The notes under the pieces are model-generated. The model was not told where the DNA came from. It was given only the letters and a program-made list of their open reading frames with translations, and made no database searches. A stretch of 64,000 bases of DNA from Candidatus Daviesbacteria bacterium RIFCSPHIGHO2_02_FULL_43_12. Its GTDB lineage: Bacteria; Patescibacteriota; Microgenomatia; Daviesbacterales; UBA10151. A program made the translations under genes and the position numbers. Below, piece by piece: positions 2,805 through 30,237 of this stretch. Location of the stretch: the NCBI GenBank assembly GCA_001776775.1, contig MFDD01000014.1, forward strand, positions 3,684-67,683. Reading direction: 5' to 3'. The first letter of the stretch is position 1; every line of letters begins with the position of its first letter.

Positions 2805-4029
2805 GTTTTCCTCGTTTAGGGTCGTGGACGGTAAATACTTTTAACCCCTTCCACCAGATTGAAAATACTGCTCTAACCGGTAAGATGGAAAACAAATAGT
2901 GTATCGTGATCAGCTGCTTTAACCACCAGACCAAAAGACCTGTCATTTCTAAACCAAAGACGTTGGTCAAGGCATACTTTCCACCTACTGCTACAACAAA
3001 AGACGGGTAGGGAGGACTGTATTTTTTTAAGGGCTTGCCTTTGATAGCGAGTTCAATATTCAAAGCTGCCACCTTTCCTTCGCTAATAGCCGACCAGGCC
3101 GCCGGAGGAACGGGAGTATTTTTGGTCTCGTCAATATATTCAGCCATATCCCCAACAACATAAACTTCCGGGTGACCTGCAAGGTTCAAACAAGCTGAGG
3201 TGTGGATCTGTCCTTTTTTGGTAAATTCTACTCCTTTAATCGCCCCATTCAAATTTGCAGCGAGCACCCCGGAGGTCCAAACTAAATAATCATATCCCAG
3301 CGGTTCCTTGTCTTGGCAGTAAATTTGCTTTTCGTCAATTTTGGTAATCATATTCCCTGTCCTTACTTGAACGCCTAGTTTTTCCAGCCGATGTAACGCC
3401 TCTGCCTGTGACCATTCCGGCATGCCGGTCAAGATACTTGGCAAAGCTTCTAAAAGAACTATTTCCGAGTGCGGATGTGGGAGTAAGCTCATCTCTGCAG
3501 CCAACTCTACTCCGCTAAACCCCCCTCCCGCCACCACCACCCGGGTCGGTTTGTCAGTTTGACTAAAAACTTTTTCTAGGTCTGACCGGCAACGCAAAGC
3601 ATCTTCTGTCGTTTTTAAGGGATGGGCATATTCTTTTGTGCCTTCAATTCCGAAAAAATTGGTGGTACTCCCCAAGCTGATAACTAAATAATTATAGCTT
3701 AGGCTTTTAGTTCCTGTCAGAACTGATTTTGTTTCCAGGTCAACCGAGTTAACTGAGTCAACCAGAAATGAAATATTTTTACGGGTGCCAAATATCTGCT
3801 CTAATGGTAAGTTGATAGCCGCTACCAGGGCCTCCTGACTTACCTTAGTGGCATCAAAAGAAGCCGTAGCTACTTCGTAGAGATCGGGGGAGTAGCAGTG
3901 AAAAGGAGATTGATTGATAATAGTGATCAGGGCGAAAGGAAGACGACTAGACAGGTCTAGCGCAGTACGTACCCCCCCAAAACCCGCTCCTAAAATGACA
4001 ATTTCTGGCTTTTCCATTTCTTTTATCAT
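2797..4029 (-). CDS. ndh: type II NADH dehydrogenase (NDH-2) / FAD-dependent pyridine nucleotide-disulfide oxidoreductase
   Basis: Two dinucleotide-binding motifs (IVILGAGFGG and VVVAGGGFSGVELAAE) and a hydrophobic C-terminal tail. Confidence 0.7.
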   Translation of the reverse strand: MIKEMEKPEIVILGAGFGGVRTALDLSSRLPFALITIINQSPFHCYSPDLYEVATASFDATKVSQEALVAAINLPLEQIFGTRKNISFLVDSVNSVDLETKSVLTGTKSLSYNYLVISLGSTTNFFGIEGTKEYAHPLKTTEDALRCRSDLEKVFSQTDKPTRVVVAGGGFSGVELAAEMSLLPHPHSEIVLLEALPSILTGMPEWSQAEALHRLEKLGVQVRTGNMITKIDEKQIYCQDKEPLGYDYLVWTSGVLAANLNGAIKGVEFTKKGQIHTSACLNLAGHPEVYVVGDMAEYIDETKNTPVPPAAWSAISEGKVAALNIELAIKGKPLKKYSPPYPSFVVAVGGKYALTNVFGLEMTGLLVWWLKQLITIHYLFSILPVRAVFSIWWKGLKVFTVHDPKRGKHV

Positions 4030-4047: not shown

Positions 4048-5037
4048 TTAGGTCGGCTTCATGCGCAAAACCGTCGTAATCGCGTGTATAATCTCTTTGG
4101 TCGTTAATCCGAATTTTTCCAGCAGTTCCTCGGACTCTCCTGATTCTCCGAAGCGGTTAGCTATCCCCACAATCTTCATAGGTACTGGAAACTTTTGGCA
4201 GACCAACTCGGCCACCGCTCCGCCTAATCCACCGGTAACCTGGTGTTCCTCAACTGTCACGATTGCTCCACATTCATCTGTCGCTTCCAGAATGGTTTTT
4301 TCGTCTAAAGGCTTTAAGGTGTGGCAATTAATTACTCGAACAGAAATATTGTGCTCTTTCATTTGTTCGGCTGCCTGCAAGGCTTGATAGACCATTTGAC
4401 CACAGGCGATAATGGCTATATCCTTACCCTCAGCTAAAACTTCGGCTTTACCAATTTGAAAAGGAGTTTGTTCGGTGGAAATGACCGGAGTTTTATCTCG
4501 AGAAAGCCTGAGATAGCTAGGTTGTTTAGTGGCGGCAATAGCCATCGTTGCTTTTTTCGCTTCAATTGAATCCATCGGCACTATCACTACCATATTCGGC
4601 AGAGCCCGCATTAAAGCAATATCTTCTAGGGCCTGATGAGTAGCTCCGTCCGGACCAACAGAGATTCCAGCATGAGAACCAATGATTTTAACCGGCTGGT
4701 CGTTATAACAGATAGTCGTCCTAATTTGTTCCCAGTTTCGTCCAGGAGAGAAGGTCGCATACGAAGCACAAAAGGGGATCTTCCCGGCTGCCGCCAACCC
4801 AGAGGCGACTGTTACTAAGTTTTGTTCCGCCACACCTACTTCAATAAAACGCTCTGGGAATTTGTCTCTAAAGCTTTGCATACGGGTAGATTCGGTGAGG
4901 TCGGCACAAAGAGCGACAACATTGGGACTGCTCTCCCCTGCCAAGACTAACCCCTCTCCAAAGCCATCGCGGGTAGGTACCTTTTCGATATCTTGGTCAA
5001 ATAATTTTGGATTTAAATGAGCTTGTTGATTAATCAT
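4048..5037 (-). CDS. tkt: transketolase, C-terminal (pyrimidine-binding) subunit
   Basis: Matches the Pyr-binding and C-terminal domains of split transketolase. Start overlaps the stop of the N-terminal subunit gene. Confidence 0.85.
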   Translation of the reverse strand: MINQQAHLNPKLFDQDIEKVPTRDGFGEGLVLAGESSPNVVALCADLTESTRMQSFRDKFPERFIEVGVAEQNLVTVASGLAAAGKIPFCASYATFSPGRNWEQIRTTICYNDQPVKIIGSHAGISVGPDGATHQALEDIALMRALPNMVVIVPMDSIEAKKATMAIAATKQPSYLRLSRDKTPVISTEQTPFQIGKAEVLAEGKDIAIIACGQMVYQALQAAEQMKEHNISVRVINCHTLKPLDEKTILEATDECGAIVTVEEHQVTGGLGGAVAELVCQKFPVPMKIVGIANRFGESGESEELLEKFGLTTKEIIHAITTVLRMKPT

Positions 5038-5888
5038 TCATGCTCCGATCTGATCTTTCCTGCCAAAGTTCGTAGCTTGTGCAAGGCTATTTTAGCTTCT
5101 TTAGCGTTGGGGGGTTTACCGTGCCATTCAAACTTGTTTTCCATAAAGTCTACTCCCTTACCCGGGATGGTATGAGCAATAATCATGGTTGGTTTCTCAA
5201 AGATAACCTTAGCCCGCTCTACTCCGTCGATAATCTCCTGCATATTATGACCATTGATTTCGATGACGGTCCAGCCAAAGGCCTCGTATTTTGCCCTAAT
5301 GTTTTCTAAAGGCATGATCTCCTCGGTAAATCCATCAATCTGGATATTATTACGATCCATAATCGCAGTCAGATTATGCAGTTTGTACTTTCCCGCCAAC
5401 ATCACGGCTTCCCAGGTATTTCCTTCATCATGCTCACCATCAGACATTAAGCAATAGGTATGCCAGGAGGCCTGATCCATTCGGGCGGCCAGTGCCATAC
5501 CACTTGCCTGAGACAACCCAGAACCAAGCGGTCCGGAAGTAGTTTCAAGCCCTGGCAGCGACTCACGGTGGGGGTGTCCCTGCAACCTGGTACCTAGCTT
5601 GCGTAAGGTACTCAACTCGTCAACCGGAAAAAAACCACGGTGGGCCAAGGTTGCATATAAAACTGGACAGATATGTCCATTGGATAAAACCAATCTATCC
5701 CGATCTGGTTTTTGGGGATTATTGGGATCAATCTTTAGGATATGAAAGTACAAAGCGGTGAAGATATCCGCCATCCCCAAAGGACCAGCCGAGTGACCTG
5801 ATCCAGCTGCCAGCAACATTTTAATAACACTTTGACGGATTTGAGTTGCCTTTAGTTCGAGATCAATAAACTCCTGGGCAGTTAGCAT
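5034..5888 (-). CDS. tkt: transketolase, N-terminal (TPP-binding) subunit
   Basis: Contains a GDGE-type ThDP-binding motif region (MSDGEHDEG) and the HP..HPHRE motif of the transketolase N-terminal domain. Confidence 0.85.
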   Translation of the reverse strand: MLTAQEFIDLELKATQIRQSVIKMLLAAGSGHSAGPLGMADIFTALYFHILKIDPNNPQKPDRDRLVLSNGHICPVLYATLAHRGFFPVDELSTLRKLGTRLQGHPHRESLPGLETTSGPLGSGLSQASGMALAARMDQASWHTYCLMSDGEHDEGNTWEAVMLAGKYKLHNLTAIMDRNNIQIDGFTEEIMPLENIRAKYEAFGWTVIEINGHNMQEIIDGVERAKVIFEKPTMIIAHTIPGKGVDFMENKFEWHGKPPNAKEAKIALHKLRTLAGKIRSEHE

Positions 5889-6593: not shown

Positions 6594-7191
6594 AATCTCC
6601 TTTCAACAATCCTGAACCTATGGCTAAGTAATCCACCCCAGCTTCTTGAAGAGCTTTGCTATTCTTCGAGTTGACCCCTCCGTCATCTCCTACTTGAATA
6701 TTCCACCGTTTTTTGATCTGGCGAATTTTCTCCAAAGCAGCTACTGAAAATTCCCTACCCTGCGCACCTGGCTCAGCAGACATCACTAGCACACTATCTA
6801 TTATGTCCATAAAAGGAGCCAGAGATTCAATAGGTGTTCCTAAGTTCAGAGACAACCCTACTTGTATATGCATGGCCTTGGTTTTTTGAATAAATTGACT
6901 TATCTGTCCCTCTCCAACCTCGACTGGCGCGACAATACGGTGAACCGGAATCTTTGATAGTTTTTCTACCCAGCTGGCCGGGTCTGCTACTAATAATTGA
7001 ATCTCCTTTTTAAAGACGTTAGGATACTTGATTAGTATATCGGGGTCGATACTTTTATTGGAAACGAACTTTCCATCCATCAAATCGATTTGGATCCAAT
7101 CTCCGTCAAAAAGCTTACTTTGTATAACTTTGGTAATCTGTTCTTGGTAAATTTCTTCTGAGGTAGCAAGTATTGCGGGAAGAATTTGCAT
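6550..7191 (-). CDS. rpe: ribulose-phosphate 3-epimerase
   Basis: IQIDLMDGKFV, VLVMSAEPGAQGREF and VGDDGG match the Rpe motifs (HxDVMDGHFVPN, VLVMSVNPGFGGQ, VDGG). Confidence 0.7.
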   Translation of the reverse strand: MQILPAILATSEEIYQEQITKVIQSKLFDGDWIQIDLMDGKFVSNKSIDPDILIKYPNVFKKEIQLLVADPASWVEKLSKIPVHRIVAPVEVGEGQISQFIQKTKAMHIQVGLSLNLGTPIESLAPFMDIIDSVLVMSAEPGAQGREFSVAALEKIRQIKKRWNIQVGDDGGVNSKNSKALQEAGVDYLAIGSGLLKGDFDENFKKIRRTLSA

Positions 7192-7759: not shown

Positions 7760-7875
7760 TTGACGACTAAATCAGTTTACTGATATAAAAGAGAGGCTTA
7801 AATTTCCGTTGGGATAAAGCACTACTTACTGCAAGGTGAGTTTACAAGAAACCCCGATACGTTCGGGGTTTTTTG
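7760..7875 (+). promoter_or_regulatory. tgt leader: sigma70-like promoter plus short transcript ending in an intrinsic terminator 12 nt before the tgt ATG
   Basis: Promoter TTGACG(7760-7765)-17-ATATAA(7783-7788). Hairpin AACCCCGatacgtTCGGGGTT (7850-7870) followed by TTTT. No leader ORF found. Confidence 0.45.
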
Positions 7876-7885
7876 TTTACAAATT

Positions 7886-8944
7886 ATGCTAAAAACCTTA
7901 AAGACCAATCATGGAGATATTTCACTCCCAACTTTTTTTCCGGACGCTACTCGAGGTGTGGTCAAAGGAGGACTGGATACCGTTGACCTGAGCAATACTA
8001 AGGTCGAAGGGATTGTGATTAATACCTTACATCTTCGTGGTGCCATCAGGGAGCAATTTAATTGTCACCTCTTAATGAATTGGACTAAACCGATCATTAC
8101 GGACTCGGGTGGGTTTCAGGTCATGTCCCTTATTCATCATCACCCTAAGTTAGGCAAGCTGACCGATAATGAGGCAATTTTTATTGATGCAAGCGGGCAG
8201 AAAATAATCTTTACTCCGGAAGCTTCCATCCAGCTTCAGCTTAAATTAGGAGCCGATATTCTAATTTGCCTGGATGACTGTACCGACCCTGAATCTCCCT
8301 TAAGTCTGCAAGAAAAATCAGTTGAGCGGACAATTAACTGGGCCAGGCGATGCAAAATAGAGTTCGATAAACTTACTAGTCAAAAAAATGCCCGACCTCT
8401 TCTCTTTGCCGTTGTCCAGGGAGGAAAAGATCGGTCACTTCGGAAAAAATGTGCTCGGGCTTTAGTTGAGCTGAATTTTGATGGATATTGCTTTGGTGGC
8501 AGACCGCTGGATGGAGAAAATAAGTTTCTTAAAAGTATTCTCCAATTCACGGCCTCTTTATTACCAAATGACAAACCAAAATATGCCATGGGAGTTGGTA
8601 CTCCTCAGAATATCGTCGACTGTTTTAAAATGGGCTATAACATGTTTGACTGTGTTATCCCTACTCGGGAAGCCCGGCATAAGAAGCTCTATATCTTTAA
8701 CAAACCGCTAGAGCAAATAGATATCCTAAACCAAGAGTTTTATAGCTCGATCTATCTGCAACAAAGTCGCTTTCGAGATAATCTGCAGCCTATTTCACCC
8801 TTTTGCGACTGTTTAACTTGCCAAAATTATTCACTCGGTTATCTATATCATCTCTTTAAAATTAAGGATATCTTAGCCCTCCGACTCGCGAGTATTCATA
8901 ACCTACGTTTTTATACTATGCTGATGGAGAAACTCACCAGGTAA
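7886..8944 (+). CDS. tgt: queuine tRNA-ribosyltransferase (tRNA-guanine transglycosylase)
   Basis: Contains the LPTFFPDAT and ITDSGGFQVMSL motifs and the zinc site CDCLTCQNYSLGYLYHL. Confidence 0.85.
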   Translation: MLKTLKTNHGDISLPTFFPDATRGVVKGGLDTVDLSNTKVEGIVINTLHLRGAIREQFNCHLLMNWTKPIITDSGGFQVMSLIHHHPKLGKLTDNEAIFIDASGQKIIFTPEASIQLQLKLGADILICLDDCTDPESPLSLQEKSVERTINWARRCKIEFDKLTSQKNARPLLFAVVQGGKDRSLRKKCARALVELNFDGYCFGGRPLDGENKFLKSILQFTASLLPNDKPKYAMGVGTPQNIVDCFKMGYNMFDCVIPTREARHKKLYIFNKPLEQIDILNQEFYSSIYLQQSRFRDNLQPISPFCDCLTCQNYSLGYLYHLFKIKDILALRLASIHNLRFYTMLMEKLTR

Positions 8945-21496: not shown

Positions 21497-22882
21497 TTAA
21501 GATGACTTTTTGGGTTTAAGAGTTAACCCGAGCTCATCAAGCTGCTCAGGCTCAGCCGGAGTTGGAGCATTCATAACCGCTGTCACCCCTGTTGAAGAAG
21601 CTGGGAAGGCAATCACTTCCCGGATAGTTGTTTCATGACATAAGATAGCTACCAGTCTATCCAAGCCCCAAGCGATACCTCCATGTGGAGGAGTTCCAAA
21701 AGAAAAAGCTTTAAGCATATGTCCAAAATTTTTGGAAATATCCTCTTTACTAAATCCCATTATCTCAAAGACCTTTTCGAGATCCTCGGCTTTGTGATTT
21801 CGGATACTACCTCCGCCTATTTCAAATCCATTGAGAACCACATCGTATTGAGTGGTCAGAATTTGATCAATATTTTCGCCCCTTTCTAGCCATTCTTGAT
21901 GTTCTGGTTTGGCAGCAGAGAACGGATTATGAGTAAAGGTCCAACCTCCAGAATCGGCTTTTTCAAAGAAAGGAAAGTCCGTTACCCAGCAAAAAGCTAA
22001 AAGATTTGGGTCCTTCTTATCAGTGCGGATATCCGGCCTATCTGTACCGTACTTTTGCATCGCTTCTTTATAAGATATTCTCGGGAAGGGAATTTCTTGA
22101 ATCTTTTTTTCTGGACAAAGTTTTTCTACCAAACTAATTAATAATTTTTCATTCAAGGCCATCACGTCTTCTTGCTCCACAAAGGATAGCTCCATGTCCA
22201 ACTGAGTAAACTCTAGCTGCCTGTCCTTACGAGTATCTTCGTCTCGGAAACAGCGAGCTATTTGAAAATATCTCTCGAACCCCGCAACCATTAGTAGTTG
22301 TTTGTACTGCTGAGGGCTTTGCGGAAGGGCATAAAAATTACCGCTATGCATTCTGGAAGGGACCAAGAAGTCTCTCGCTCCCTCGGGTGTAGCTTTGGTT
22401 AAAATAGGTGTTTCTATTTCTATAAATTCATCGTCTGTTAGCCAGTTGCGTAGAAAAGAAATTATTTTGTGTCTTTGGCGAATATTACTTGTGAGTCTGT
22501 TTCGGCGAAGATCTAAATAGCGATACTCAAGTCTTGTTTCTTCTCCAATATCATAGCCTTCTCCTTCGAGAGGAAATGGAGATGTTTGAGAAGGGGAGAC
22601 TAGCTCAACTTTTTGGGCAGAAAGTTCTATTTCCCCGGTGGGAATATTTGGATTAATTAATTTTTCCGGACGTTTATTTATTTGTCCGGTGATTTTGACC
22701 ACACTTTCTGGGGTAATCCCTTGTAACATCTCACCGGTTACAAAAATTTGGATGAATCCTGACCTATCTCGCAGATCAATAAAGCCGATCTTGCCGTGAC
22801 TACGAATAGTCTGCACCCAACCCAAAAGAGTTGCTTGCTGACCTACTTTTTGCAGACAATCAAGGGCGAGAGTACGCTCCAT
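21497..22882 (-). CDS. aspS: aspartyl-tRNA synthetase (short form lacking GAD insertion domain)
   Basis: QSPQQYKQLLMV, class II motif 2 FRDEDTRKDRQLEFTQLD and motif 3 GLDRLV. 461 aa. Confidence 0.85.
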   Translation of the reverse strand: MERTLALDCLQKVGQQATLLGWVQTIRSHGKIGFIDLRDRSGFIQIFVTGEMLQGITPESVVKITGQINKRPEKLINPNIPTGEIELSAQKVELVSPSQTSPFPLEGEGYDIGEETRLEYRYLDLRRNRLTSNIRQRHKIISFLRNWLTDDEFIEIETPILTKATPEGARDFLVPSRMHSGNFYALPQSPQQYKQLLMVAGFERYFQIARCFRDEDTRKDRQLEFTQLDMELSFVEQEDVMALNEKLLISLVEKLCPEKKIQEIPFPRISYKEAMQKYGTDRPDIRTDKKDPNLLAFCWVTDFPFFEKADSGGWTFTHNPFSAAKPEHQEWLERGENIDQILTTQYDVVLNGFEIGGGSIRNHKAEDLEKVFEIMGFSKEDISKNFGHMLKAFSFGTPPHGGIAWGLDRLVAILCHETTIREVIAFPASSTGVTAVMNAPTPAEPEQLDELGLTLKPKKSS

Positions 22883-22886
22883 AAAA

Positions 22887-23813
22887 TTATTTTGGATTAA
22901 CTTTCGTTACCCAATCCGAGTATTTTTCCAATTCACCGTGTACCAATTTATAAAATAGATCTTTTAATTTTGTCCCTACTTCTCTACTCTCACCCAAAGG
23001 CCGATGGTCAATCTCGGCAATGGGAGTTACTTCTGCGGCAGTGCCAGTCAAAAAAGCTTCATCAGCACTATATATTTCAGAGCGGTCTATGCTTCTTTCT
23101 ATAGCCTGTAGCCCCAGCTCTTTGGTGCAAAGCTTAATCACCGTATCCCTGGTTATACCGACTAAAGTATCGTCTGAGACGGGAGGTGTAATAACCACGC
23201 CATCTTTAATCATAAAAATATTTGATGAGCTACTTTCCACAACATGTCCTCTGTCGTCTAGTACCAGCGCGTCATCATATCCATTTAGCTGAGCTTCTGT
23301 TTTTGTTAAACAGGTATTAATGTAAGCTCCTGTAATTTTACCTCGAGGTGGTATAGCATTATCCGATACTCTTCTCCATGAGCTAATACCCAATCTTACC
23401 CCTTTTTCAGAGTCCAAATACTTACCCATCGGGACATTATACATAATGATACTATCTTGCAGAGTTGGTAGTTTAAAGTTGCCAACAGCCGGGTCGGATT
23501 TGAAAGCTAGGGGTCGAACATACATATCTGTTTCGGTGAAATTTCTTTGCAATAGTTCAACTACAAAACCGCACATCTCATCTACTGTATAGGGAATATC
23601 AATAAAAACAATTTTGGCTGATTGTTTCATTCTTTTAAAATGATCTTCCAGCCGAAAGGCGAAAAAGCACTTATCTTTCTCGCTATAATAAGCTCTAATC
23701 CCTTCAAAAACGCCCGTTCCATAATGCAGGGCATGCGCAGTTACCGGAATAACCGCTTTGGCTTCTGGTACAAATTTTCCATTTACAAAAAAGGTCCTAG
23801 TCATGTTTTGCAC
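22887..23813 (-). CDS. ilvE: class IV (branched-chain / D-amino acid) PLP aminotransferase
   Basis: Length and N-terminal FVNGKFVPEAKAVIP...GTGVFEGIRAY are typical of the BCAT/DAAT fold IV. Confidence 0.7.
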   Translation of the reverse strand: MQNMTRTFFVNGKFVPEAKAVIPVTAHALHYGTGVFEGIRAYYSEKDKCFFAFRLEDHFKRMKQSAKIVFIDIPYTVDEMCGFVVELLQRNFTETDMYVRPLAFKSDPAVGNFKLPTLQDSIIMYNVPMGKYLDSEKGVRLGISSWRRVSDNAIPPRGKITGAYINTCLTKTEAQLNGYDDALVLDDRGHVVESSSSNIFMIKDGVVITPPVSDDTLVGITRDTVIKLCTKELGLQAIERSIDRSEIYSADEAFLTGTAAEVTPIAEIDHRPLGESREVGTKLKDLFYKLVHGELEKYSDWVTKVNPK

Positions 23814-24078
23814 CCTCCTGTTCCTCTATTGTATAAGCAATACTAAAAAAAGTCATCCAGATCTTTGCAATAATCTCTTTGGTTAAGCCAAGGGCTTTTC
23901 CTTGGACAGCCAAGCTATCTATTCTTTCCTGCTCGCGAGCTGGATCTTTAATCGGTTTACCTACCAACTTTTTATATTCCCCAACTTTTTTCACCACTTC
24001 AATCCTTTGACTAATTAAGTCTAATAATTTGGCGTCTATTTGATCAATCGCTTTTCTCAGTTGATTTAAGTCTTCCAT
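23797..24078 (-). CDS. chorismate mutase (AroQ class)
   Basis: 93 aa with LRKAIDQIDAKLLDLISQRIEVVKKVGEYK, an AroQ-type helix-bundle signature. Confidence 0.7.
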   Translation of the reverse strand: MEDLNQLRKAIDQIDAKLLDLISQRIEVVKKVGEYKKLVGKPIKDPAREQERIDSLAVQGKALGLTKEIIAKIWMTFFSIAYTIEEQEGAKHD

Positions 24079-24833
24079 TAAATCCCTCTTAGTGCAGTTA
24101 CTAAACCTGCATCTGGATTTGTAGTATATCTTGCTTGAAAGTTTAGAGCAAGATAATCCTGCTCAGAAGGCGGGAGCTGCACTCCTACAGCTCGGAATCT
24201 TTCTATACCTCTACCAAAGTTTGGATTAAGCATCACTCCCCTCCTTGTGAGCTCAGTCACACCCCTCCATGAGTCATTTAAAAAGCTTAACCCTGATCGC
24301 AGAATCTGACCATAAGCTACTACCTTGTATGCGCCTTGTTCAGTCTGTTGTGCCAAAAAAATATCCACTCCGGTGATTTTAGTCAGCCCATCAGAAAGAG
24401 GCTTATTCGTTGGAACATATAAGGCCTCCAATGCTCTAAGTAGTCCTCTAGTTGGTTCGGTTGTTGCAGTCAGGGCCTGTCTAACTTTTGAATGCCTTAA
24501 AGTATGTTCTCCTAGTTGGCTTAGATGAGCTATGGCATCACTTTGCCCTTCCAAAGCTCGGGTCACTAAACTATCTAAGAATCCTGTTAGGATTAACTGA
24601 TTTTCCGGAGAGCACTGAAACCCAACACAGGCTGCTGGTTGACCTTTTCCATGAACGGTACATATAGCTCCCTCCCTTTCCATTTTCAACAAAGGACATG
24701 CTACATTTGCTGATTTATCTATCTCGTAGATCGTTAATAATTTGCAACAAAGTCCACAGTCGCAATCTCCCCCATGAATTGTTTGGCTTGATCTTTCTTG
24801 TGCAGCGCTATTTAACATTTTATACTCCTCCAA
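24078..24833 (-). CDS. hypothetical protein with N-terminal CxCxxCC metal-binding (YkgJ/UPF0153-like) domain
   Basis: GGDCDCGLCCK...CPLL...CTVHG...CVGFQC cysteine pattern; the rest is unrecognised. Confidence 0.4.
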   Translation of the reverse strand: MEEYKMLNSAAQERSSQTIHGGDCDCGLCCKLLTIYEIDKSANVACPLLKMEREGAICTVHGKGQPAACVGFQCSPENQLILTGFLDSLVTRALEGQSDAIAHLSQLGEHTLRHSKVRQALTATTEPTRGLLRALEALYVPTNKPLSDGLTKITGVDIFLAQQTEQGAYKVVAYGQILRSGLSFLNDSWRGVTELTRRGVMLNPNFGRGIERFRAVGVQLPPSEQDYLALNFQARYTTNPDAGLVTALRGI

Positions 24834-26451
24834 TCACTTTGATTACTGGACAATATTGTTTAAGAATATTTAGTGCTTGATCCATCCGTTCATCGTTAGT
24901 AGAAACTTCTACTTCAATGAAGAAGTGGTAATCCCAAACTTTTTCTCTGCTCGGCCGGGATTCAATTTTAGATAAATTAATATTGCTGCTGGCAAAAACA
25001 TTGAGAATATCTCGTAAAATACCTACCCTATTAAATACTGTTAAAAAAAGCAGTGTCCGGGAAGTGGGGATAGATAATTTATTAATATCCTTGGAGATAA
25101 CATAAAACTTTGTAACGTTACTTTTATTATCCTCAATACCTTTTCGCAAAACAGGAATATTATTTAACTTGGCAGCAAGTAGTGGACTTATAAAGGCTAC
25201 GCCTAGCTCATTTCTGTGCTCTTTGATACTAGAAACAGTACTAGAGGCAGTCTCCATGTTGACATTTGGTAAATGTTCCCTGAGCCAGTTTCTACATTGA
25301 GCCAAAGCCTGGGGATGAGAATATACTTTAGTAATATTTTTTAGAGATTTTTCTTCGGAAAGTAAGTTTTGTTGAATCGGTAAGTTCAGCGAACCATTTG
25401 TTCTCATATCAAAATCTATCAAAAAGTCCAGCGTTTCTCTGACGGTTCCTTCGGTGGAATTCTCTGCCGGAACTATTCCAAAATCGGCTTGTAAACTTTT
25501 GACTGCTTCAAAGATTTTTAAGAAATTCTCACAAGGGAGAAGCTGGCTCTCTTTGGCAACAGTTAAGGAAATCTGATGAGAGAATGTTCCCTGGGGACCA
25601 AGGTAAGCTATTTTTCCTTTGAGTTTCTGGGGTAGGTCTTTTTGTTTTATGCTTGTCGCTTGTTGCTTGTTGCTTGTTCCTTTAGGAGTCGAGTCGATAC
25701 TCCTATGAATTTTTTCAATTAATTTATGAAGTTTTTCTCTATCACCATTTTTTAGTTCCTGAAGAAACTCTTGCTGAGTTTTGATGAAATCATTTAGTAC
25801 AGATAGCCCTTCACTATTTCCCAATTGAATTTCTGTCAATAGCTCTGGTGGTTGCGAAATTACTCGACTAAGGGTAGCCATTTGCGCGAGGAAAGGTGGG
25901 GTAGAAACTTTTCCCCCCAAGTCTATTTTATTTTTCAGTAAAACCTTGGCTAAGTTTAGATTTACAAAATGAGTTAGATTTTGCAGGTGAGCCATATATA
26001 GATCATGACTTTTTGACGACATTTCAATAATTTCGGCTCCAGCATTTTTAAGCACCACTTTAAGTTTGTCCAGTAGAGTGCTTTTTTTAATAACACTTAA
26101 AACAACTTTTTGGTTTTGGATGGACGATACTGTTGGACCAAAAAGTAAATGTAAACCTGCTGCGGGTTGGGGTATTTGCGATAGGGTTTTTGCGACTGCC
26201 TGTTGAACAGAAGAAAGATCAACAATTAAAGTATTTCTTTTAGCTCTTTTAGAAATATCCAAAATTACATCTTTGGCTTTGGAAATAGGGACCGAGACAA
26301 AAATAATCTCACTAGATTTTAGAGTACTATCTTCAACACCTTTAGAACCACTGACACTAACCAAAACCCTTTGGCTTTCTAAAAAGTTTCTTAGCCAATT
26401 CCCCATCTGTCCAGTCCCTCCAATAATATGTACTTTTAGATTTCTATTCAT
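24820..26451 (-). CDS. fusion protein: prephenate dehydrogenase (TyrA) N-terminal + prephenate dehydratase (PheA PDT domain) + ACT domain
   Basis: N-terminal Rossmann motif IIGGTGQMG and SHDLYMAHLQNLTHF (TyrA). C-terminal YLGPQGTFSHQ...ENSTEG...ESRPSR (PDT with ESRP motif) plus ACT. Confidence 0.7.
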   Translation of the reverse strand: MNRNLKVHIIGGTGQMGNWLRNFLESQRVLVSVSGSKGVEDSTLKSSEIIFVSVPISKAKDVILDISKRAKRNTLIVDLSSVQQAVAKTLSQIPQPAAGLHLLFGPTVSSIQNQKVVLSVIKKSTLLDKLKVVLKNAGAEIIEMSSKSHDLYMAHLQNLTHFVNLNLAKVLLKNKIDLGGKVSTPPFLAQMATLSRVISQPPELLTEIQLGNSEGLSVLNDFIKTQQEFLQELKNGDREKLHKLIEKIHRSIDSTPKGTSNKQQATSIKQKDLPQKLKGKIAYLGPQGTFSHQISLTVAKESQLLPCENFLKIFEAVKSLQADFGIVPAENSTEGTVRETLDFLIDFDMRTNGSLNLPIQQNLLSEEKSLKNITKVYSHPQALAQCRNWLREHLPNVNMETASSTVSSIKEHRNELGVAFISPLLAAKLNNIPVLRKGIEDNKSNVTKFYVISKDINKLSIPTSRTLLFLTVFNRVGILRDILNVFASSNINLSKIESRPSREKVWDYHFFIEVEVSTNDERMDQALNILKQYCPVIKVIGGV

Positions 26452-26939
26452 TTTATTCTTTCTCGGCTAGCTCCTATTCCTCTTGAAAACCTGCTACATC
26501 TAACTTCTAAAAGATTGCTTTTATTTATCCTAAAGGATCCTCTTCTGGCACTGGGATCTATCGGTACCAAATAATCATGTCCATGCGGAGTATTCCCTTC
26601 TTCTTGTCCGAAGAGTGTTAACGCTTCTTGAACAGCTCTCTTTGCATCGCTGATCTGTTTTGCTAATGGGACATCTGCTGTATTCTGTATTAAAGGTGCT
26701 AATGGATCCATTTGAACAAGAGCAAAATATTGTCCATCTATTTTCATGATCCTTACACCTATCACTAAATCAGACGGAAGTCTCATTAGTCTTCCTGACC
26801 CATGGTAGCCTATCGGATCTCCAACTCGAAGACATTGCGCCGGAGCAAGATCTTTAAGAAATTGAAAGACAGATAATTTTTCACCCGTCCTTTTAGATGC
26901 TTTTCCTTCTCTGACTGTTCTATGAATTAAAATTTCCAT
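26448..26939 (-). CDS. hypothetical protein (first gene of the Phe/Tyr operon)
   Basis: ORF only. ATGA overlap with the downstream TyrA-PheA gene. Confidence 0.4.
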   Translation of the reverse strand: MEILIHRTVREGKASKRTGEKLSVFQFLKDLAPAQCLRVGDPIGYHGSGRLMRLPSDLVIGVRIMKIDGQYFALVQMDPLAPLIQNTADVPLAKQISDAKRAVQEALTLFGQEEGNTPHGHDYLVPIDPSARRGSFRINKSNLLEVRCSRFSRGIGASRERIK

Positions 26940-26950
26940 ATTTTTCCAAT

Positions 26951-26972
26951 AAAAAACCCCGCATCTGCGGGG
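26951..26972 (-). terminator. intrinsic terminator of the aromatic leader (attenuator), 9 nt upstream of the operon ATG
   Basis: Minus strand reads CCCCGCagatGCGGGG followed by TTTTTT. Confidence 0.65.
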
Positions 26973-27001
26973 CCTCTTTGAGTCTTGGTCTTTTTAAAAG
27001 A

Positions 27002-27073
27002 CTACGACAGATGCCCCTCCTTTCGGAAGTTAAAGTTAAAGTAAAACCAAAAATTATTTACAATCTGTTTCAT
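27002..27073 (-). CDS. leader peptide MKQIVNNFWFYFNFNFRKEGHLS (aromatic-codon-rich attenuator peptide)
   Basis: 23-aa ORF between a canonical promoter and an intrinsic terminator. Seven of nine consecutive codons are Phe/Trp/Tyr. Confidence 0.55.
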   Translation of the reverse strand: MKQIVNNFWFYFNFNFRKEGHLS

Positions 27074-27101
27074 AACTAAAGTGTAGCTTAGCAAATAAAG
27101 G

Positions 27102-27129
27102 ATTATATGTCAAATAATACAGCATTCAA
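27102..27129 (-). promoter_or_regulatory. sigma70-like promoter TTGAAT-16-TATAAT driving the aromatic leader
   Basis: Reverse complement of 27124-27129 is TTGAAT and of 27102-27107 is TATAAT. Spacer is 16 nt. Confidence 0.55.
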
Positions 27130-27160
27130 ATAACTTGGCTTGCGTTGTATAATCAGTATA

Positions 27161-27532
27161 ATGAAATTCATTAATAGCTCGAAAGCTCCAGCAGTTGTAG
27201 GACCATATTCCCATGCTATAGTTAGCAATGGAATGGTTTACCTTTCTGGGTCGATAGGAGTAGATCCACAAACTGGAGATTTGGCAGAAGGAATAGAGAA
27301 TCAAACGAAACAGGTATTAGCCAATTTAAAAGCAGTCTTGAAAGATGCAGGGAGTTCTGTAGATAAAATTGTTTCAGCAAATTGCTATTTGCAAAGCATG
27401 GAAGATTATGCAAAGTTTAACCATGTATATGGTGAATTTTTCGGAAATCACAAACCCGCTCGAACAACGATTGAAGTAGCAGCATTACCAAGAAAAGCGC
27501 TTGTCGAAATATCTTTTATCGCCGAGATTTAA
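27161..27532 (+). CDS. ridA: RidA/YjgF/TdcF family reactive-intermediate (enamine/imine) deaminase
   Basis: PAVVGPYSHAIVSNGMVYLSGSIG...ARTTIEVAALP are RidA motifs. Start set at ATG 27161. A TATAAT at 27148-27153 suggests a leaderless mRNA. Confidence 0.8.
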   Translation: MKFINSSKAPAVVGPYSHAIVSNGMVYLSGSIGVDPQTGDLAEGIENQTKQVLANLKAVLKDAGSSVDKIVSANCYLQSMEDYAKFNHVYGEFFGNHKPARTTIEVAALPRKALVEISFIAEI

Positions 27533-27539
27533 CTAATAT

Positions 27540-27568
27540 TTGACAAATTTAATCGCTTTGCTTAAAAT
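27540..27568 (+). promoter_or_regulatory. sigma70-like promoter TTGACA-17-TAAAAT immediately after ridA
   Basis: TTGACA at 27540-27545 and TAAAAT at 27563-27568. Confidence 0.55.
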
Positions 27569-27575
27569 ACATTTT

Positions 27576-27650
27576 ATGTTTAGAAAGATTTTAAATCTTA
27601 ACCTCATTATAGAGCTCCTTAGCAGGAGCAAATCAGGGAGGTTTGTTTAA
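27576..27650 (+). CDS. leader peptide MFRKILNLNLIIELLSRSKSGRFV (Leu/Ile-codon-rich attenuator peptide)
   Basis: 24-aa ORF whose stop codon lies inside the antiterminator 5' strand. Codons run ILNLNLIIELL. Confidence 0.45.
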   Translation: MFRKILNLNLIIELLSRSKSGRFV

Positions 27651-27681
27651 GTATTTTTAAAAATACTTAAGAAAGGAATAA

Positions 27682-27704
27682 CCTCCCACTCGGGAGGTTT
27701 TTTT
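27682..27704 (+). terminator. intrinsic terminator of the Leu/Ile-type leader, 8 nt upstream of the downstream ATG
   Basis: CCTCCCactcGGGAGG followed by TTTTTTT. The 5' strand is shared with the alternative pairing GGGAGGTT(27636-27643)/AACCTCCC(27680-27687). Confidence 0.65.
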
Positions 27705-27712
27705 ATACCAAA

Positions 27713-29296
27713 ATGACAGCAATTATAAACGAGCGACAGGGTGCAAGACCCAGCACTCCCCAACAAAGAGCTGCAACGGTTTTTCTGAGGGATAGATTCA
27801 ATGCCTTTGATGAGAGATGGCTTGTTGGACACAAAGGGGACCATGCTTCTAACCTGCATGACCTGGGAATCATTGGTCAGAGAGTTCATGTTGCCCATGT
27901 ACATAGTACTCTTGGTGTTGATGCAGATCGGACTTACAAACCGCCAGAAGAAACCTCTGATTCCTATGAGGGACTCCTGACAGGAGCTAATCCCGGATTG
28001 TCCGGAGAGGTAAGCAGAGTAAGAGCTGCACAAATGAGGGTTGTAGTTCTAATGCCTTTTCCCAACTCCGACTTTGAGGGTATGATTGCAAGAGCAAAGG
28101 CAGGAAGATATTTCGTTTCAACAGCGCCGATAGAAAGTTTCGAAACTTTTGAACCAATCGAGAACAAGATATCCTTTGCCAGAATACTTCAGGCAGCTTT
28201 ACAAGGAACTCCTCATACGAGAAATCTAATTCCCTGGACCATACATCAACCTCATTGGGGATTAGATGACGTTAGGCGGAATATGGGAGTAGACCCAGGG
28301 AGTGCAATTTTCTTTCAAAAAGCTATCTCAGGTGGAGGAGATGGGACAGCAAGGGTGAATGATCGATCCAACTTTAATGAACTTTTAAGTAACCCCTCTT
28401 GGATGCAGGCAGCTCGACGAGGGAAACTAAAGGCCTCAATGGCAGTAGAAGGTGCTTATCCAGCAAATGGAACCGGATGTATCGTACCTACCCCGGATGG
28501 CGGTTGCAAAGTTTTGGTTGATCCATTATCTCATAAGCCTGTTGGGTTAGAGAGTGTTGGAGCAAAACCAGGTAGCGGAGCCGGTAATGACTGGGGTACG
28601 CCTTTCCCTAGAGCTGTTACCGATCAATATATTGCAATGGTTTCTCGTCTAGGAAAGTATTTTTATACTACTTTTGGCTACACTGGTATTTTTGGTCCAG
28701 ATGGATTAGTTGGAGCAGATTCAACCTATCGTATGACGGAAAGTAACTCCAGATGGCAAGGTACTACTCCATATCAAACTCAAAATGCTTTGATGAATGG
28801 ACGTTTGCCGATCGAGCTGATACATTACATGGTTAAACTTTCAGTAAATGACTCTCACTTACTTGGACAAGTCAATGATATCGTTGGAGATGCAGACTCT
28901 TATAATCAAAGAGCCTTCACAGAAAGAGGAGGGTTTTATATTAAAGTTGGAGGGCCTAAAACCAAGAAGGAAGTTAGGGAGGACTTAAATGGACCATGGC
29001 GGTGGGATGGAGATCGGTTACATAGACTAAAAAGAGATGGATATTTAACACCTATGCGAATTTATACGAGAGATTACGCAGGAGCTCAAGACCTAACTAA
29101 AGATGATAAAACCGTCTGGATTAAGGCACCTAAGGTAGGCGAGGTTGTAGGAGGAGGATTAGTGGCTGTCGGATACATAACAGGTAGCGATATAAATGTC
29201 TTTGATGCAAATAAGCCAGAGGTTACTTCGGACGGGCATAAGTTATATACTCAAATGAACCAGTTGATGTATAGCCAACGGAGTTCATGGAAATAA
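27713..29296 (+). CDS. hypothetical 527-aa protein, no recognisable family
   Basis: Long ORF whose GC content and codon usage look somewhat higher than neighbouring genes. No signal peptide. Overlaps the downstream AstE/AspA-like gene by 10 nt. Confidence 0.5.
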   Translation: MTAIINERQGARPSTPQQRAATVFLRDRFNAFDERWLVGHKGDHASNLHDLGIIGQRVHVAHVHSTLGVDADRTYKPPEETSDSYEGLLTGANPGLSGEVSRVRAAQMRVVVLMPFPNSDFEGMIARAKAGRYFVSTAPIESFETFEPIENKISFARILQAALQGTPHTRNLIPWTIHQPHWGLDDVRRNMGVDPGSAIFFQKAISGGGDGTARVNDRSNFNELLSNPSWMQAARRGKLKASMAVEGAYPANGTGCIVPTPDGGCKVLVDPLSHKPVGLESVGAKPGSGAGNDWGTPFPRAVTDQYIAMVSRLGKYFYTTFGYTGIFGPDGLVGADSTYRMTESNSRWQGTTPYQTQNALMNGRLPIELIHYMVKLSVNDSHLLGQVNDIVGDADSYNQRAFTERGGFYIKVGGPKTKKEVREDLNGPWRWDGDRLHRLKRDGYLTPMRIYTRDYAGAQDLTKDDKTVWIKAPKVGEVVGGGLVAVGYITGSDINVFDANKPEVTSDGHKLYTQMNQLMYSQRSSWK

Positions 29297-30237
29297 CAGA
29301 GATAAAAACCAACATTGGAAATACAGCCTCAGGGACACCTCTGCTAATCAACGGCTACCATCTTAAGGGTTCTCATCCCGGGAAAAAGATATATATACAA
29401 GGAGGTATTCATGGAGGTGAAGTTACTATTTGGATTTTTCAAGAATTATTTAAATACTTTTCTGAACATGAGATCCAGGGTGAGGTTTTTTTAATCCCCG
29501 TAGCTAACCCTGTTGCTTGGAATCAGCGTATTTACTTTAGTACTTTAGGTAAATTTGATTTCTATATGGGTAAAGACTGGAATCGAAACTTTCCAGGAAA
29601 TGAAGATGGCACTCTTGGAGAAAGGATTGCTAAAAAACTTTTTGATATTGCTTCAAGAGCAGATTTTATTATCGATCTTCATACATCGAGAGATAGTTTC
29701 CCATTTGCAATATTATCTTCTAAAAATGATCTCGCATACGCGCAGAAGATTGGACTTGAATATAACCTTCTATTAGATCTCGACGATCCTAAGTTTAGTA
29801 GCTATAGAAGTACACTAACAGGTCAGGGAAGCTTATCAAATGCTCCTAGTATTGCCATAGAGTGCGGGAGGCATGACTCCTATAATGAAGAATACTGCAA
29901 AGAAGTTACCAACGGTTTACTTCGCTTAATGAGCCACCTCGGCATTATCAATGACAAAAAGATTCCTCCTACAACTAAAAAGGTAAAATATTATTCAAGG
30001 TTAAAAACCTATAGATCCCCCAATGGTGGGTTCATAAAATTCAATAAGCATGCGGGAGATGAATACAAGAAAGGGGAAATTTTATTTGAGCTTATTAACC
30101 CGTCTGATCTAGGTTCTGCAACTGTAGTGTTCGCCGAAGAAGATGGAATTCTGCAAAAGAAGTCCCCAACTTTTATCTATATGCCAGGTGATGACGTCCT
30201 TGAAGTATTACCGCTTACTAATATAAAGTTCATATAA
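29287..30237 (+). CDS. succinylglutamate desuccinylase/aspartoacylase (AstE/AspA) family zinc hydrolase (M14-like)
   Basis: N-terminal zinc-site GGIHGGE (H-x-x-E), second His in IDLHTS, and ECGRHDS; about 316 aa. Confidence 0.6.
   Translation: MEITEIKTNIGNTASGTPLLINGYHLKGSHPGKKIYIQGGIHGGEVTIWIFQELFKYFSEHEIQGEVFLIPVANPVAWNQRIYFSTLGKFDFYMGKDWNRNFPGNEDGTLGERIAKKLFDIASRADFIIDLHTSRDSFPFAILSSKNDLAYAQKIGLEYNLLLDLDDPKFSSYRSTLTGQGSLSNAPSIAIECGRHDSYNEEYCKEVTNGLLRLMSHLGIINDKKIPPTTKKVKYYSRLKTYRSPNGGFIKFNKHAGDEYKKGEILFELINPSDLGSATVVFAEEDGILQKKSPTFIYMPGDDVLEVLPLTNIKFI

Follow-up and report, generated by a model that had tools for sequence, protein, structure and literature searches.

The putative regulatory leader considered here lies in a 64-kb stretch of Candidatus Daviesbacteria DNA (the window, in which all coordinates are counted unless a locus is named), in front of an operon for phenylalanine and tyrosine biosynthesis; leader and operon are both read from the minus strand. 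A 224-nt gap between a divergent gene of the RidA family (27164-27532, plus strand; Pfam Ribonuc_L-PSP) and the first open reading frame (ORF) of the operon, whose ATG is at 26939, houses the whole element. Its promoter has a -35 hexamer TTGAAT (27124-27129) and a -10 hexamer TATAAT (27102-27107) separated by a 16-nt spacer, scores 10 matches out of 12 in a promoter scan and has counterparts at the same place in homologous loci (TTGACA, then 17 nt to the -10 hexamer). Since start sites usually lie about 7 nt past a -10 hexamer, transcription is predicted to start near 27095. The leader-peptide ORF that follows (27002-27094) ends at the UAG codon 27004-27002 and has two candidate starts: from the AUG at 27073 it encodes 23 aa, MKQIVNNFWFYFNFNFRKEGHLS, and an in-frame UUG at 27094 would add seven more residues to give 30 aa in total. 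The putative regulatory codon run, FWFYFNFNF (27052-27026), comprises five Phe, one Trp, one Tyr and two Asn codons, so that seven of nine consecutive codons are aromatic. Two more stretches with at least seven aromatic codons in nine occur elsewhere in the window, in out-of-frame or non-coding frames; as this AT-rich DNA yields such stretches, the case for the leader rests on context and conservation.

The RNA between the codon run and the operon is predicted to fold into several hairpins. A first one (1:2), CUUCC-GAAA-GGAGG (27029-27016), emerges from minimum free energy (MFE) folding at -5.1 kcal/mol; its segment 1 overlaps the last Phe codon, and its proposed role is that of an anti-antiterminator. 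The minus-strand sequence GGAGGGGC occupies 27020-27013, and segment 2, GGGGCAUCU (27017-27009), the 5′ strand of the antiterminator, lies inside the footprint of a ribosome positioned at the leader stop codon. Folding then gives a middle hairpin, GUCUUU-UAA-AAAGAC (27002-26988), which the antiterminator helix encloses, while a duplex calculation delimits the antiterminator 3′ strand, segment 3 or AGAGGCCCC (26977-26969), which also serves as the 5′ arm of the terminator. The intrinsic terminator (segments 3:4) reads AGGCCCCGC-AGAU-GCGGGGUUU at 26975-26954, with a U-run to 26951. At -14.7 kcal/mol in ViennaRNA it is the most stable hairpin-plus-U-run of the whole 64 kb, and its exact motif occurs once in the window against zero expected. 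A generic terminator scan missed this hairpin, which ViennaRNA folds cleanly, probably because the scan extends the stem into the A/U flanks. The leader as a whole is more stable than its shuffled versions (z = -2.46). A pairing across the terminator loop, GCAUCUG:CAGAUGC, was discarded as a coincidence that is not conserved in the related locus L002.

The promoter, the run of seven aromatic codons in nine and the intrinsic terminator had all been proposed in an initial annotation of this DNA, and all three stand. The distance from the U-run to the operon ATG is 11 nt rather than the 9 nt given there, a trivial difference. The run mixes Phe, Tyr and Trp rather than consisting of Phe alone, and the start is uncertain, either the UUG at 27094 or the AUG at 27073.

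The same module, with its leader ORF and its 1:2, 2:3 and 3:4 pairings, is found 5′ of the aromatic operon in all 13 distinct loci in which the operon start is visible (the window, L002, L006, L010-L017, L019 and L020), so that the leader ORF and terminator, whose retention at orthologous loci had been suggested as a check, are kept throughout. Loci were collected by a genome scan, a metagenome scan and eleven contig look-ups. The search was anchored on the TyrA-PheA fusion enzyme encoded by the operon because the first ORF, of 163 aa, is nearly an orphan; as an anchor the latter failed, its sole relative being L001, a contig of the same population with an identical leader. The metagenome scan, run with an alignment of the fusion enzyme, returned only three loci, of which one is truncated and two are duplicates of L002; far more loci came from looking up the contigs that encode the relatives. 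The Levyibacteriota loci L003-L005 stand outside the 13, as their operon start lies beyond the fetched DNA. Identity of TyrA-PheA to that of the window ranges from 42 to 64% across the related loci. Set against the window leader peptide as reference, the leaders read MLSMLNNFWYNFYFNFRKEGRI in L002 (64%), MLSNLINYWFNYFPSARREV in L010 (58%), MVSLKQPVNIYYIYFTFRKEEAS in L011 (56%), MNKNWNNYFYFYFTFRKEGTL in L012 (54%), MLSVGNFRYYFNFNFL in L006 and MKTNQVNKWFFAYFAFRKEGVC in L013 (both 51%), MNHSVNYYWFYFTSLRGGSLMV in L014 (49%), MDRKISKWFSYFSFYFRKEGVF in L017 (48%), MTQTSRFFYFYFASLTGRFAAV in L015 and its near-identical L018 (45%), MRLCVFFSNFNFTPSGR in L019 (44%), MKTNKMSLYFKFTSL in L016 and MTQYRSFHFYFITQLGR in L020 (both 42%).

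What is conserved among these leaders is a class of codons and a set of RNA segments. Phe, Tyr and Trp together make up 29.8% of 228 leader residues from 11 loci versus 9.1% in the long ORFs of the window (binomial P = 6.5e-19); the aromatic class is kept in the 13 distinct loci, with single residues swapping among F, Y and W. All loci have an in-frame start, an aromatic run and a stop codon set so that a terminating ribosome would cover segment 2. The CUUCC/GGAGG hairpin occurs, in different loci, in all three frames relative to the ORF, and the aromatic run is always in frame with the start. The ‘FRKEG’ tail thus reflects a constraint on the RNA and not on the peptide, and the conservation of the leader, as read from these sequences, acts at the RNA level. 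The gene upstream of the module varies (ridA, aspS, rplT or ilvB-like), as does the first gene downstream (a small ORF, DAHP synthase, EPSP synthase, a 616-aa protein or tyrA-pheA itself). Since the flanking genes differ while the module stays, the module travels with the aromatic operon.

Compensatory changes support the 1:2 and 3:4 helices. A covariance model (R1), trained on the 1:2 hairpin and terminator of 12 aromatic leaders, recovers its training elements at 66-106 bits, with the window element in mid-range at 95.4 bits. In a model-guided alignment of 23 elements, 7 of the 15 pairs in these two helices are changed on both sides and 83% of the cells are paired; U-A is replaced by C-G in both helices, for example, and C-G by G-C in the terminator. 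The percentage paired, the cells with both-side changes and the covariation score are higher than in all 500 shuffles, and the seven pairs with both-side change were matched by 2 of the 500 shuffles and the further pair types by 48. All covariation measures exceed every slid control. RNAalifold, applied to a plain MAFFT alignment that had not been fitted to the model, finds the same two helices. Across loci, the 1:2 hairpin retains GNRA loops together with compensatory pairs, and in every relative the position of the middle hairpin is filled by a hairpin of different sequence.

The 2:3 pairing called for another approach, because its register shifts between loci: a column-based count was dropped, and a register-free test of cognate versus non-cognate duplexes was used instead, in which segment 2 with its 3′ flank was paired with the 5′ arm and 5′ flank of its own or of a foreign terminator. 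Over the 23 elements, the mean duplex energy is -14.2 kcal/mol for cognate and -11.6 kcal/mol for non-cognate partners, and permutation gives p = 2e-5 overall and p = 7e-4 within the same terminator-core type; restricted to the 11 aromatic loci, p = 1e-4. In the window, the antiterminator joins GGGGC-A-UCU (27017-27009) to AGA-G-GCCCC (26977-26969), that is GGGGCAUCU:AGAGGCCCC, in a duplex of -14.6 kcal/mol that is mutually exclusive with the terminator. The initial annotation had seen that a segment before the stop codon can pair with the GCCCC of the terminator, which is correct, but had described 5 bp where the helix comprises 8 bp and one A.G mismatch.

Ribosome occupancy was mimicked by folding each leader with a stretch of 28 nt held unpaired. 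All 13 loci form the terminator when the ribosome occupies the stop codon; in every one of them, segment 2 starts no more than 19 nt ahead of the first base of that codon and no more than 6 nt past it. With the ribosome stalled on the aromatic codons, the equilibrium MFE structure loses the terminator fully in seven (L006 and L013-L018) and partly in L012, or 8 of 13, and shows no switch in the window, L002, L010 and L011, where the terminator still wins. In the five loci modelled as transcripts cut short ahead of segment 4 (window, L002, L010, L011 and L012), the 2:3 helix does form, with the middle hairpin inside it, and a ribosome at the stop codon, by covering segment 2, abolishes it. The mutually exclusive 2:3 and 3:4 pairings that the initial annotation had proposed to look for by folding are therefore found, with the qualification that in the window the 2:3 helix appears only in truncated transcripts. 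As modelled, the footprints reproduce classical attenuation logic, of which the kinetic step is putative.

These observations lead to an interpretation that we hold with high confidence on the basis of sequence and folding models: the element very probably works by ribosome-mediated (leader-peptide) transcription attenuation and ties the Phe/Tyr operon to the availability of charged aromatic tRNAs. Transcription would start about 7 nt past TATAAT, and a ribosome would translate the short leader ORF. When Phe-, Tyr- and Trp-tRNAs are plentiful, it would reach the UAG at 27004-27002 with its footprint over segment 2 (GGGGCAUCU); segment 3 would then pair with segment 4 and RNA polymerase would terminate at the U-run 11 nt 5′ of the operon. 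When these tRNAs are scarce, the ribosome would stall in FWFYFNFNF, covering segment 1 (CUUCC) and freeing segment 2, which would pair with the terminator 5′ arm (AGAGGCCCC) as soon as it is transcribed; the middle hairpin would be enclosed, the terminator blocked and the operon transcribed. If the leader is not translated, the 1:2 hairpin would form, making termination the default. The parts, their conservation, the covariation and the mutually exclusive pairings support this mechanism in silico, and from them we infer the transcription start, the translation of the leader, the kinetic trapping of the antiterminator and the physiological response.

The way in which translation of the leader begins deserves separate attention. 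In 10 of 11 distinct aromatic leaders, the start codon lies 7-11 nt past a -10 hexamer, which a spacer of 16-17 nt separates from a TTGACA-like -35 hexamer, and the leader mRNAs should therefore be leaderless or nearly so; the exception is L012, which has a GAGGA Shine-Dalgarno sequence in place of a leaderless start. The same promoter-to-start arrangement can be seen at L006 1987-2026, L015 7590-7627 and window 27540-27578, and several sister elements (described below) have a -10-like hexamer 6-13 nt before the start. Structural genes of the same loci use GGAGG Shine-Dalgarno sequences. In the window it is the UUG at 27094 that sits 7 nt past the -10 hexamer, in the slot taken in relatives by a leaderless AUG (M-L-S), and the CUA AGC that follows it lines up with the M-L-S with which the leaders of L002, L006 and L010 begin. 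The AUG at 27073 is 21 nt further on, and neither start is preceded by a Shine-Dalgarno sequence. A separate promoter for this AUG (TTGACA 27113-27108, TACACT 27085-27080) was considered and rejected on account of its 22-nt spacer. GUG starts are used on leaderless mRNAs in other phyla, according to a study of mycobacterial leaders (10.1101/834739); the use of UUG on such mRNAs is less certain.

The scaffold is not confined to aromatic leaders. With its filters off, the covariance model finds exactly one further element in the window, at 27565-27706 on the plus strand (42.2 bits). This second attenuator-like element (27541-27712, plus strand) has a TTGACA-17-TAAAAT promoter, an AUG 7 nt further on at 27576, a Leu/Ile-rich leader, MFRKILNLNLIIELLSRSKSGRFV, with its stop codon at 27648-27650, and a terminator AACCUCCC-ACUC-GGGAGGUU plus U7 at 27680-27705 that is preceded by hairpins. 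It stands directly 5′ of an ORF of 527 aa (27713-29296), itself followed by an AstE/AspA-like gene (29287-30237); comparison of the 527-aa protein with Pfam, NCBIfam and PDB sequences gave no match, and the other loci contain no homologue of it. Elsewhere, a codon run encoding TTTTTT precedes thrS on the same scaffold (L015 4469-4532 and L020 6836-6932, minus strand), and one of the Ile/Val/Leu-rich leaders precedes an acetolactate-synthase-like gene in L013, where elements lie at 4083-4199 and 3487-3629 (minus strand). Met-rich leaders occur in L002 and L014, with runs such as SMMYMM, SMMSM and MSFSMSM among the elements. In L011, four paralogous genes of about 436-512 aa, two of them with GCS2 hits, each have a different leader, be it Leu-, aromatic-, Met- or Ile/Val-rich; the L011 sites are 1873-1978, 3468-3608, 5010-5133 and 6623-6761 (minus strand). 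The remaining sites are L002 1731-1879 (minus strand), 1986-2107 and 2764-2881, L012 6374-6511 (minus strand), L014 2084-2178 and L019 911-1067. A single covariance model finds these sister elements whatever the codon run, at 30-57 bits.

On balance, we lean towards the view that Daviesbacteria possess a network of modular, mostly leaderless leader-peptide attenuators built on one scaffold, in which only the codon run is exchanged (aromatic, Thr, Met, Leu or Ile/Val). In this shared scaffold, segment 1 would be rich in pyrimidines, segment 2 would resemble GGAGG (usually with a GNRA loop closing it in the aromatic leaders), a middle hairpin would come next, and the terminator would be of the CCUCCC or CCCCGC type. 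If the network is real, transcription-translation coupling and regulation based on tRNA charging would operate in bacteria of the candidate phyla radiation (CPR), and the codon run would label the amino-acid specificity of orphan genes, such as the pair formed by the 527-aa protein and the AstE-like gene (27713-30237) or the four L011 paralogues. A third consequence, far less likely than the other two, is that the aromatic member found between rplT and pheST may share ancestry with E. coli pheM.

Several points weigh against attenuation in the window. At equilibrium, the window terminator (-14.7 kcal/mol) wins at each modelled ribosome position, and antitermination would therefore need kinetic trapping of the 8-bp helix with its one A.G mismatch, and segment 4 keeps a CGC toehold free. 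Segment 1 is masked with segment 2 still accessible only when the ribosome stalls within about the last three or four codons of the run, and a stall on the final Phe codon leaves just three of the five G:C pairs available. Complementarity between G-runs and C-runs is partly generic; the within-type permutation addresses this point, but the loci are phylogenetically related. Translation of the leader may be inefficient in this genome, with a UUG in the leaderless slot and an AUG at 27073 that has no Shine-Dalgarno sequence; the start used, and its efficiency, is the weakest point for the window copy. The host is uncultivated, and transcription-translation coupling is not known from CPR bacteria.

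Some of these points can be read as signs that the scaffold is decaying or constitutive here, the AUG having mutated to UUG, the leader being poorly translated and the hairpin acting as a fixed partial terminator or as an insulator from the divergent ridA promoter region. This would account for the UUG in the slot where relatives have AUG, for the downstream AUG without a Shine-Dalgarno sequence and for a window 2:3 helix that is among the weaker ones and loses at equilibrium; in addition, the leader is followed by a near-orphan gene that a strain-level breakpoint interrupts. We nonetheless consider it unlikely, since the ORF, the aromatic run, the stop position and all four segments are intact, the family-model score of 95.4 bits is mid-range and the 2:3 duplex, at -14.6 kcal/mol, is specific to its own terminator. 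The GUG starts on leaderless mRNAs of other phyla that are mentioned in 10.1101/834739 also weigh against it, with less certainty for UUG.

Another possibility is a real switch that is driven in trans by a metabolite, by an RNA-binding protein or, in the manner of T-boxes, by an uncharged tRNA, the ORF being incidental. The CUUCC-GNRA-GGAGG hairpin, which is the most conserved piece of the element and is common to the non-aromatic sister elements, could dock such a protein or RNA. This explanation is very unlikely: no T-box or riboswitch family matches even at permissive thresholds (for T-box, 26850-27250 gave no hit at E <= 10, and the window gave no hit at the gathering threshold), the element measures about 120 nt and has no specifier-like domain, and every locus has an in-frame start, an aromatic run and a stop so placed that a terminating ribosome covers segment 2. 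Sister elements, moreover, swap the codon run to suit the regulated gene and keep the scaffold. As only a translating ribosome can read that match, it is a strong argument against a switch driven by a protein or a metabolite. Least probable of all, and barely to be entertained, is that the ORF encodes a functional hydrophobic micropeptide, or that the terminated RNA of about 145 nt is a small RNA, with a terminator that merely ends a small gene. Trans functions of this kind exist elsewhere, for instance those of rnTrpL/peTrpL in Sinorhizobium, as described in PMC6614838 and PMC7298713. Here, however, the peptides, which span 15-23 aa when counted from AUG, have neither length nor sequence in common apart from their aromatic class, an RNA hairpin read in different frames sets their C-terminal residues, and an operon for aromatic biosynthesis always follows the module immediately and on the same strand; a trans role would supplement attenuation, not replace it.

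The operon placed under the control of this putative attenuator begins with the 163-aa ORF (26448-26939), which has no family match and is not kept at this place in relatives. It continues, all on the minus strand, with a 543-aa TyrA-PheA fusion of prephenate dehydrogenase, prephenate dehydratase and ACT domains (24820-26451; Pfam PDH_N, PDH_C, PDT and ACT, and NCBIfam), a Cys-rich ORF of 251 aa (24078-24833) that matches neither Pfam nor NCBIfam and lacks homologues at the other loci, a type II chorismate mutase (23797-24078; Pfam CM_2) and a class IV (IlvE-type) aminotransferase (22887-23813; Pfam, NCBIfam). The assignment of the fusion, the chorismate mutase and the aminotransferase in the initial annotation is thereby confirmed, as is its suspicion of a CPR-like lineage: the fusion shares 100% identity with a protein from the groundwater genome Candidatus Daviesbacteria bacterium RIFCSPHIGHO2_01_FULL_44, of the Patescibacteria/Microgenomates group, and has 183 relatives at E < 1e-60, for which all organism names supplied by the sources are Daviesbacteria or Patescibacteria. 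CPR bacteria, or Patescibacteria, are usually described as minimal in biosynthetic and regulatory capacity. In many of the loci, a full or partial shikimate pathway lies beside TyrA-PheA, a notable biosynthetic capacity for CPR genomes.

Only 4 nt downstream of the aminotransferase lies the gene for aspartyl-tRNA synthetase (aspS, 21497-22882, minus strand), which, judging from the spacing of the ORFs, is probably co-transcribed with the aromatic operon; this order of genes recurs in L010 and in L002/L007. Asn codons are interspersed with the aromatic codons (window 27058-27029, minus strand; L002, L006, L010 and L012), at three to four per leader against a background of 3.8%, and several of these loci have aspS either adjacent or co-transcribed. 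The idea that they serve as tRNA-Asn sensors for aspS was rejected, as Asn counts do not follow the presence of aspS cleanly (the L017 leader lacks Asn codons despite a nearby aspS). Contig L001, which belongs to the same population and was obtained from another sample, is 99.8% identical to window positions 27343-26506, leader included, and unrelated past 26505/26506. The breakpoint falls inside the 163-aa ORF, which in L001 has another C-terminus, with a convergent phosphodiesterase-like gene standing after it in place of tyrA-pheA; this divergence is due either to a strain-level rearrangement or to a chimeric assembly.

Strong canonical intrinsic terminators are scarce in the window as a whole, with seven candidates on both strands, and the top three all lie just 5′ of gene starts rather than at gene ends. 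The second strongest, AAACCCCGA-UACGU-UCGGGGUUU with a U-run (-13.7 kcal/mol), belongs to an element at 7760-7885 on the plus strand, behind a TTGACG promoter-like site in a divergent intergenic region, and ends about 10 nt 5′ of a queuine tRNA-ribosyltransferase (TGT) gene at 7886. No leader ORF accompanies this element, and none of the Rfam families scores above chance on it; a riboswitch or attenuator that has so far gone unrecognised is a possibility.

Among known systems, the closest resemblance is to the phenylalanine leaders of E. coli. No Rfam family is detected at the gathering threshold in the window, nor in L013, L015 and L017. Below that threshold, Phe_leader (RF01859) can be aligned from end to end with the window sequence that starts at the leader AUG, with 33.6 bits (E = 6e-4 in a 401-nt search), which falls short of the gathering score of 55 that defines the family. 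Conversely, the Daviesbacteria leader model scores E. coli pheL at 35.8 bits and pheM at 32.5 bits and does not match E. coli trpL, thrL, hisL, ilvL or leuL. The likeness to the pheA/pheST attenuators pointed out in the initial annotation thus holds in both directions. As in pheA/pheL, a short Phe-rich ORF is combined with alternative 1:2, 2:3 and 3:4 pairings and a terminator just 5′ of a prephenate dehydratase gene. The window leader differs in that its run combines Phe, Tyr and Trp codons with Asn codons in between, its antiterminator encloses an additional middle hairpin and the start is probably leaderless; moreover, the regulated gene is a TyrA-PheA fusion instead of a chorismate mutase-prephenate dehydratase, and the host belongs to the CPR and not to the Gammaproteobacteria.

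The pheST leader pheM offers a second parallel, as it mixes Phe and Tyr and uses a GGAGGC/GCCUCC pairing of segments 2 and 3 and a GCCUCC...GGAGGC-U7 terminator. In E. coli the gene order is thrS-infC-rpmI-rplT-pheM-pheS-pheT (L021 3944-4750), and in L014, L015, L016, L018 and L020 it is thrS-infC-(rpmI)-rplT-[leader]-(aro/tyrA-pheA genes)-pheS-pheT, with the leader in the slot of pheM (L014 5695-6216; L015 7261-7765; L016 3907-4385; L018 3884-4387; L020 9537-10003). The window module, by contrast, adjoins ridA and not rplT, and the rplT-linked loci carry aromatic biosynthesis genes between the leader and pheST. The rplT-leader-pheST synteny is suggestive; homology with pheM is not demonstrable from it, since pheL, at an unrelated locus, scores equally well, and the similarity to both is explained by shared constraints, namely Phe codons and a terminator.

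Other comparisons concern the way in which such leaders are reused. Leaderless short ORFs rich in Cys codons serve as sensors across several mycobacterial operons (Canestrari et al., 10.1101/834739), a work that develops the regulon-level idea of a ‘ribulon’ and describes elements that act on translation by unmasking a downstream ribosome-binding site. The Daviesbacteria elements resemble them in being leaderless and reused, and differ from them in sensing other amino acids and in having a canonical terminator hairpin and U-run: in the window, a hairpin with U6 lies beside the gene, and the downstream start region (26950-26937) is outside the structure, which sets the element apart from the mycobacterial Cys type. 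Parallel attenuation for several amino acids, with mixed runs, is also known from E. coli thr, ilvGMEDA and ilvBN and from actinobacterial trp, leu and ilv leaders (PMC1262725); unlike these classical attenuators, the Daviesbacteria elements share one recognisable scaffold, and one model finds them all.

In the literature consulted, no report was found of leader-peptide attenuation in Patescibacteria, CPR, Daviesbacteria or Microgenomates. A conserved attenuator of the Phe/Tyr operon would mean that CPR cells sense tRNA charging through a ribosome coupled to RNA polymerase and would add an unannotated regulatory gene and RNA to these genomes, while the recurrence of its scaffold with other codon runs would provide a simple guess at the substrates of unknown genes. 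The proposed attenuator is of a classical kind with a textbook mechanism; the advance lies in its distribution and usage rather than in its principle, and the known phylogenetic range of Phe-type attenuation would be widened.

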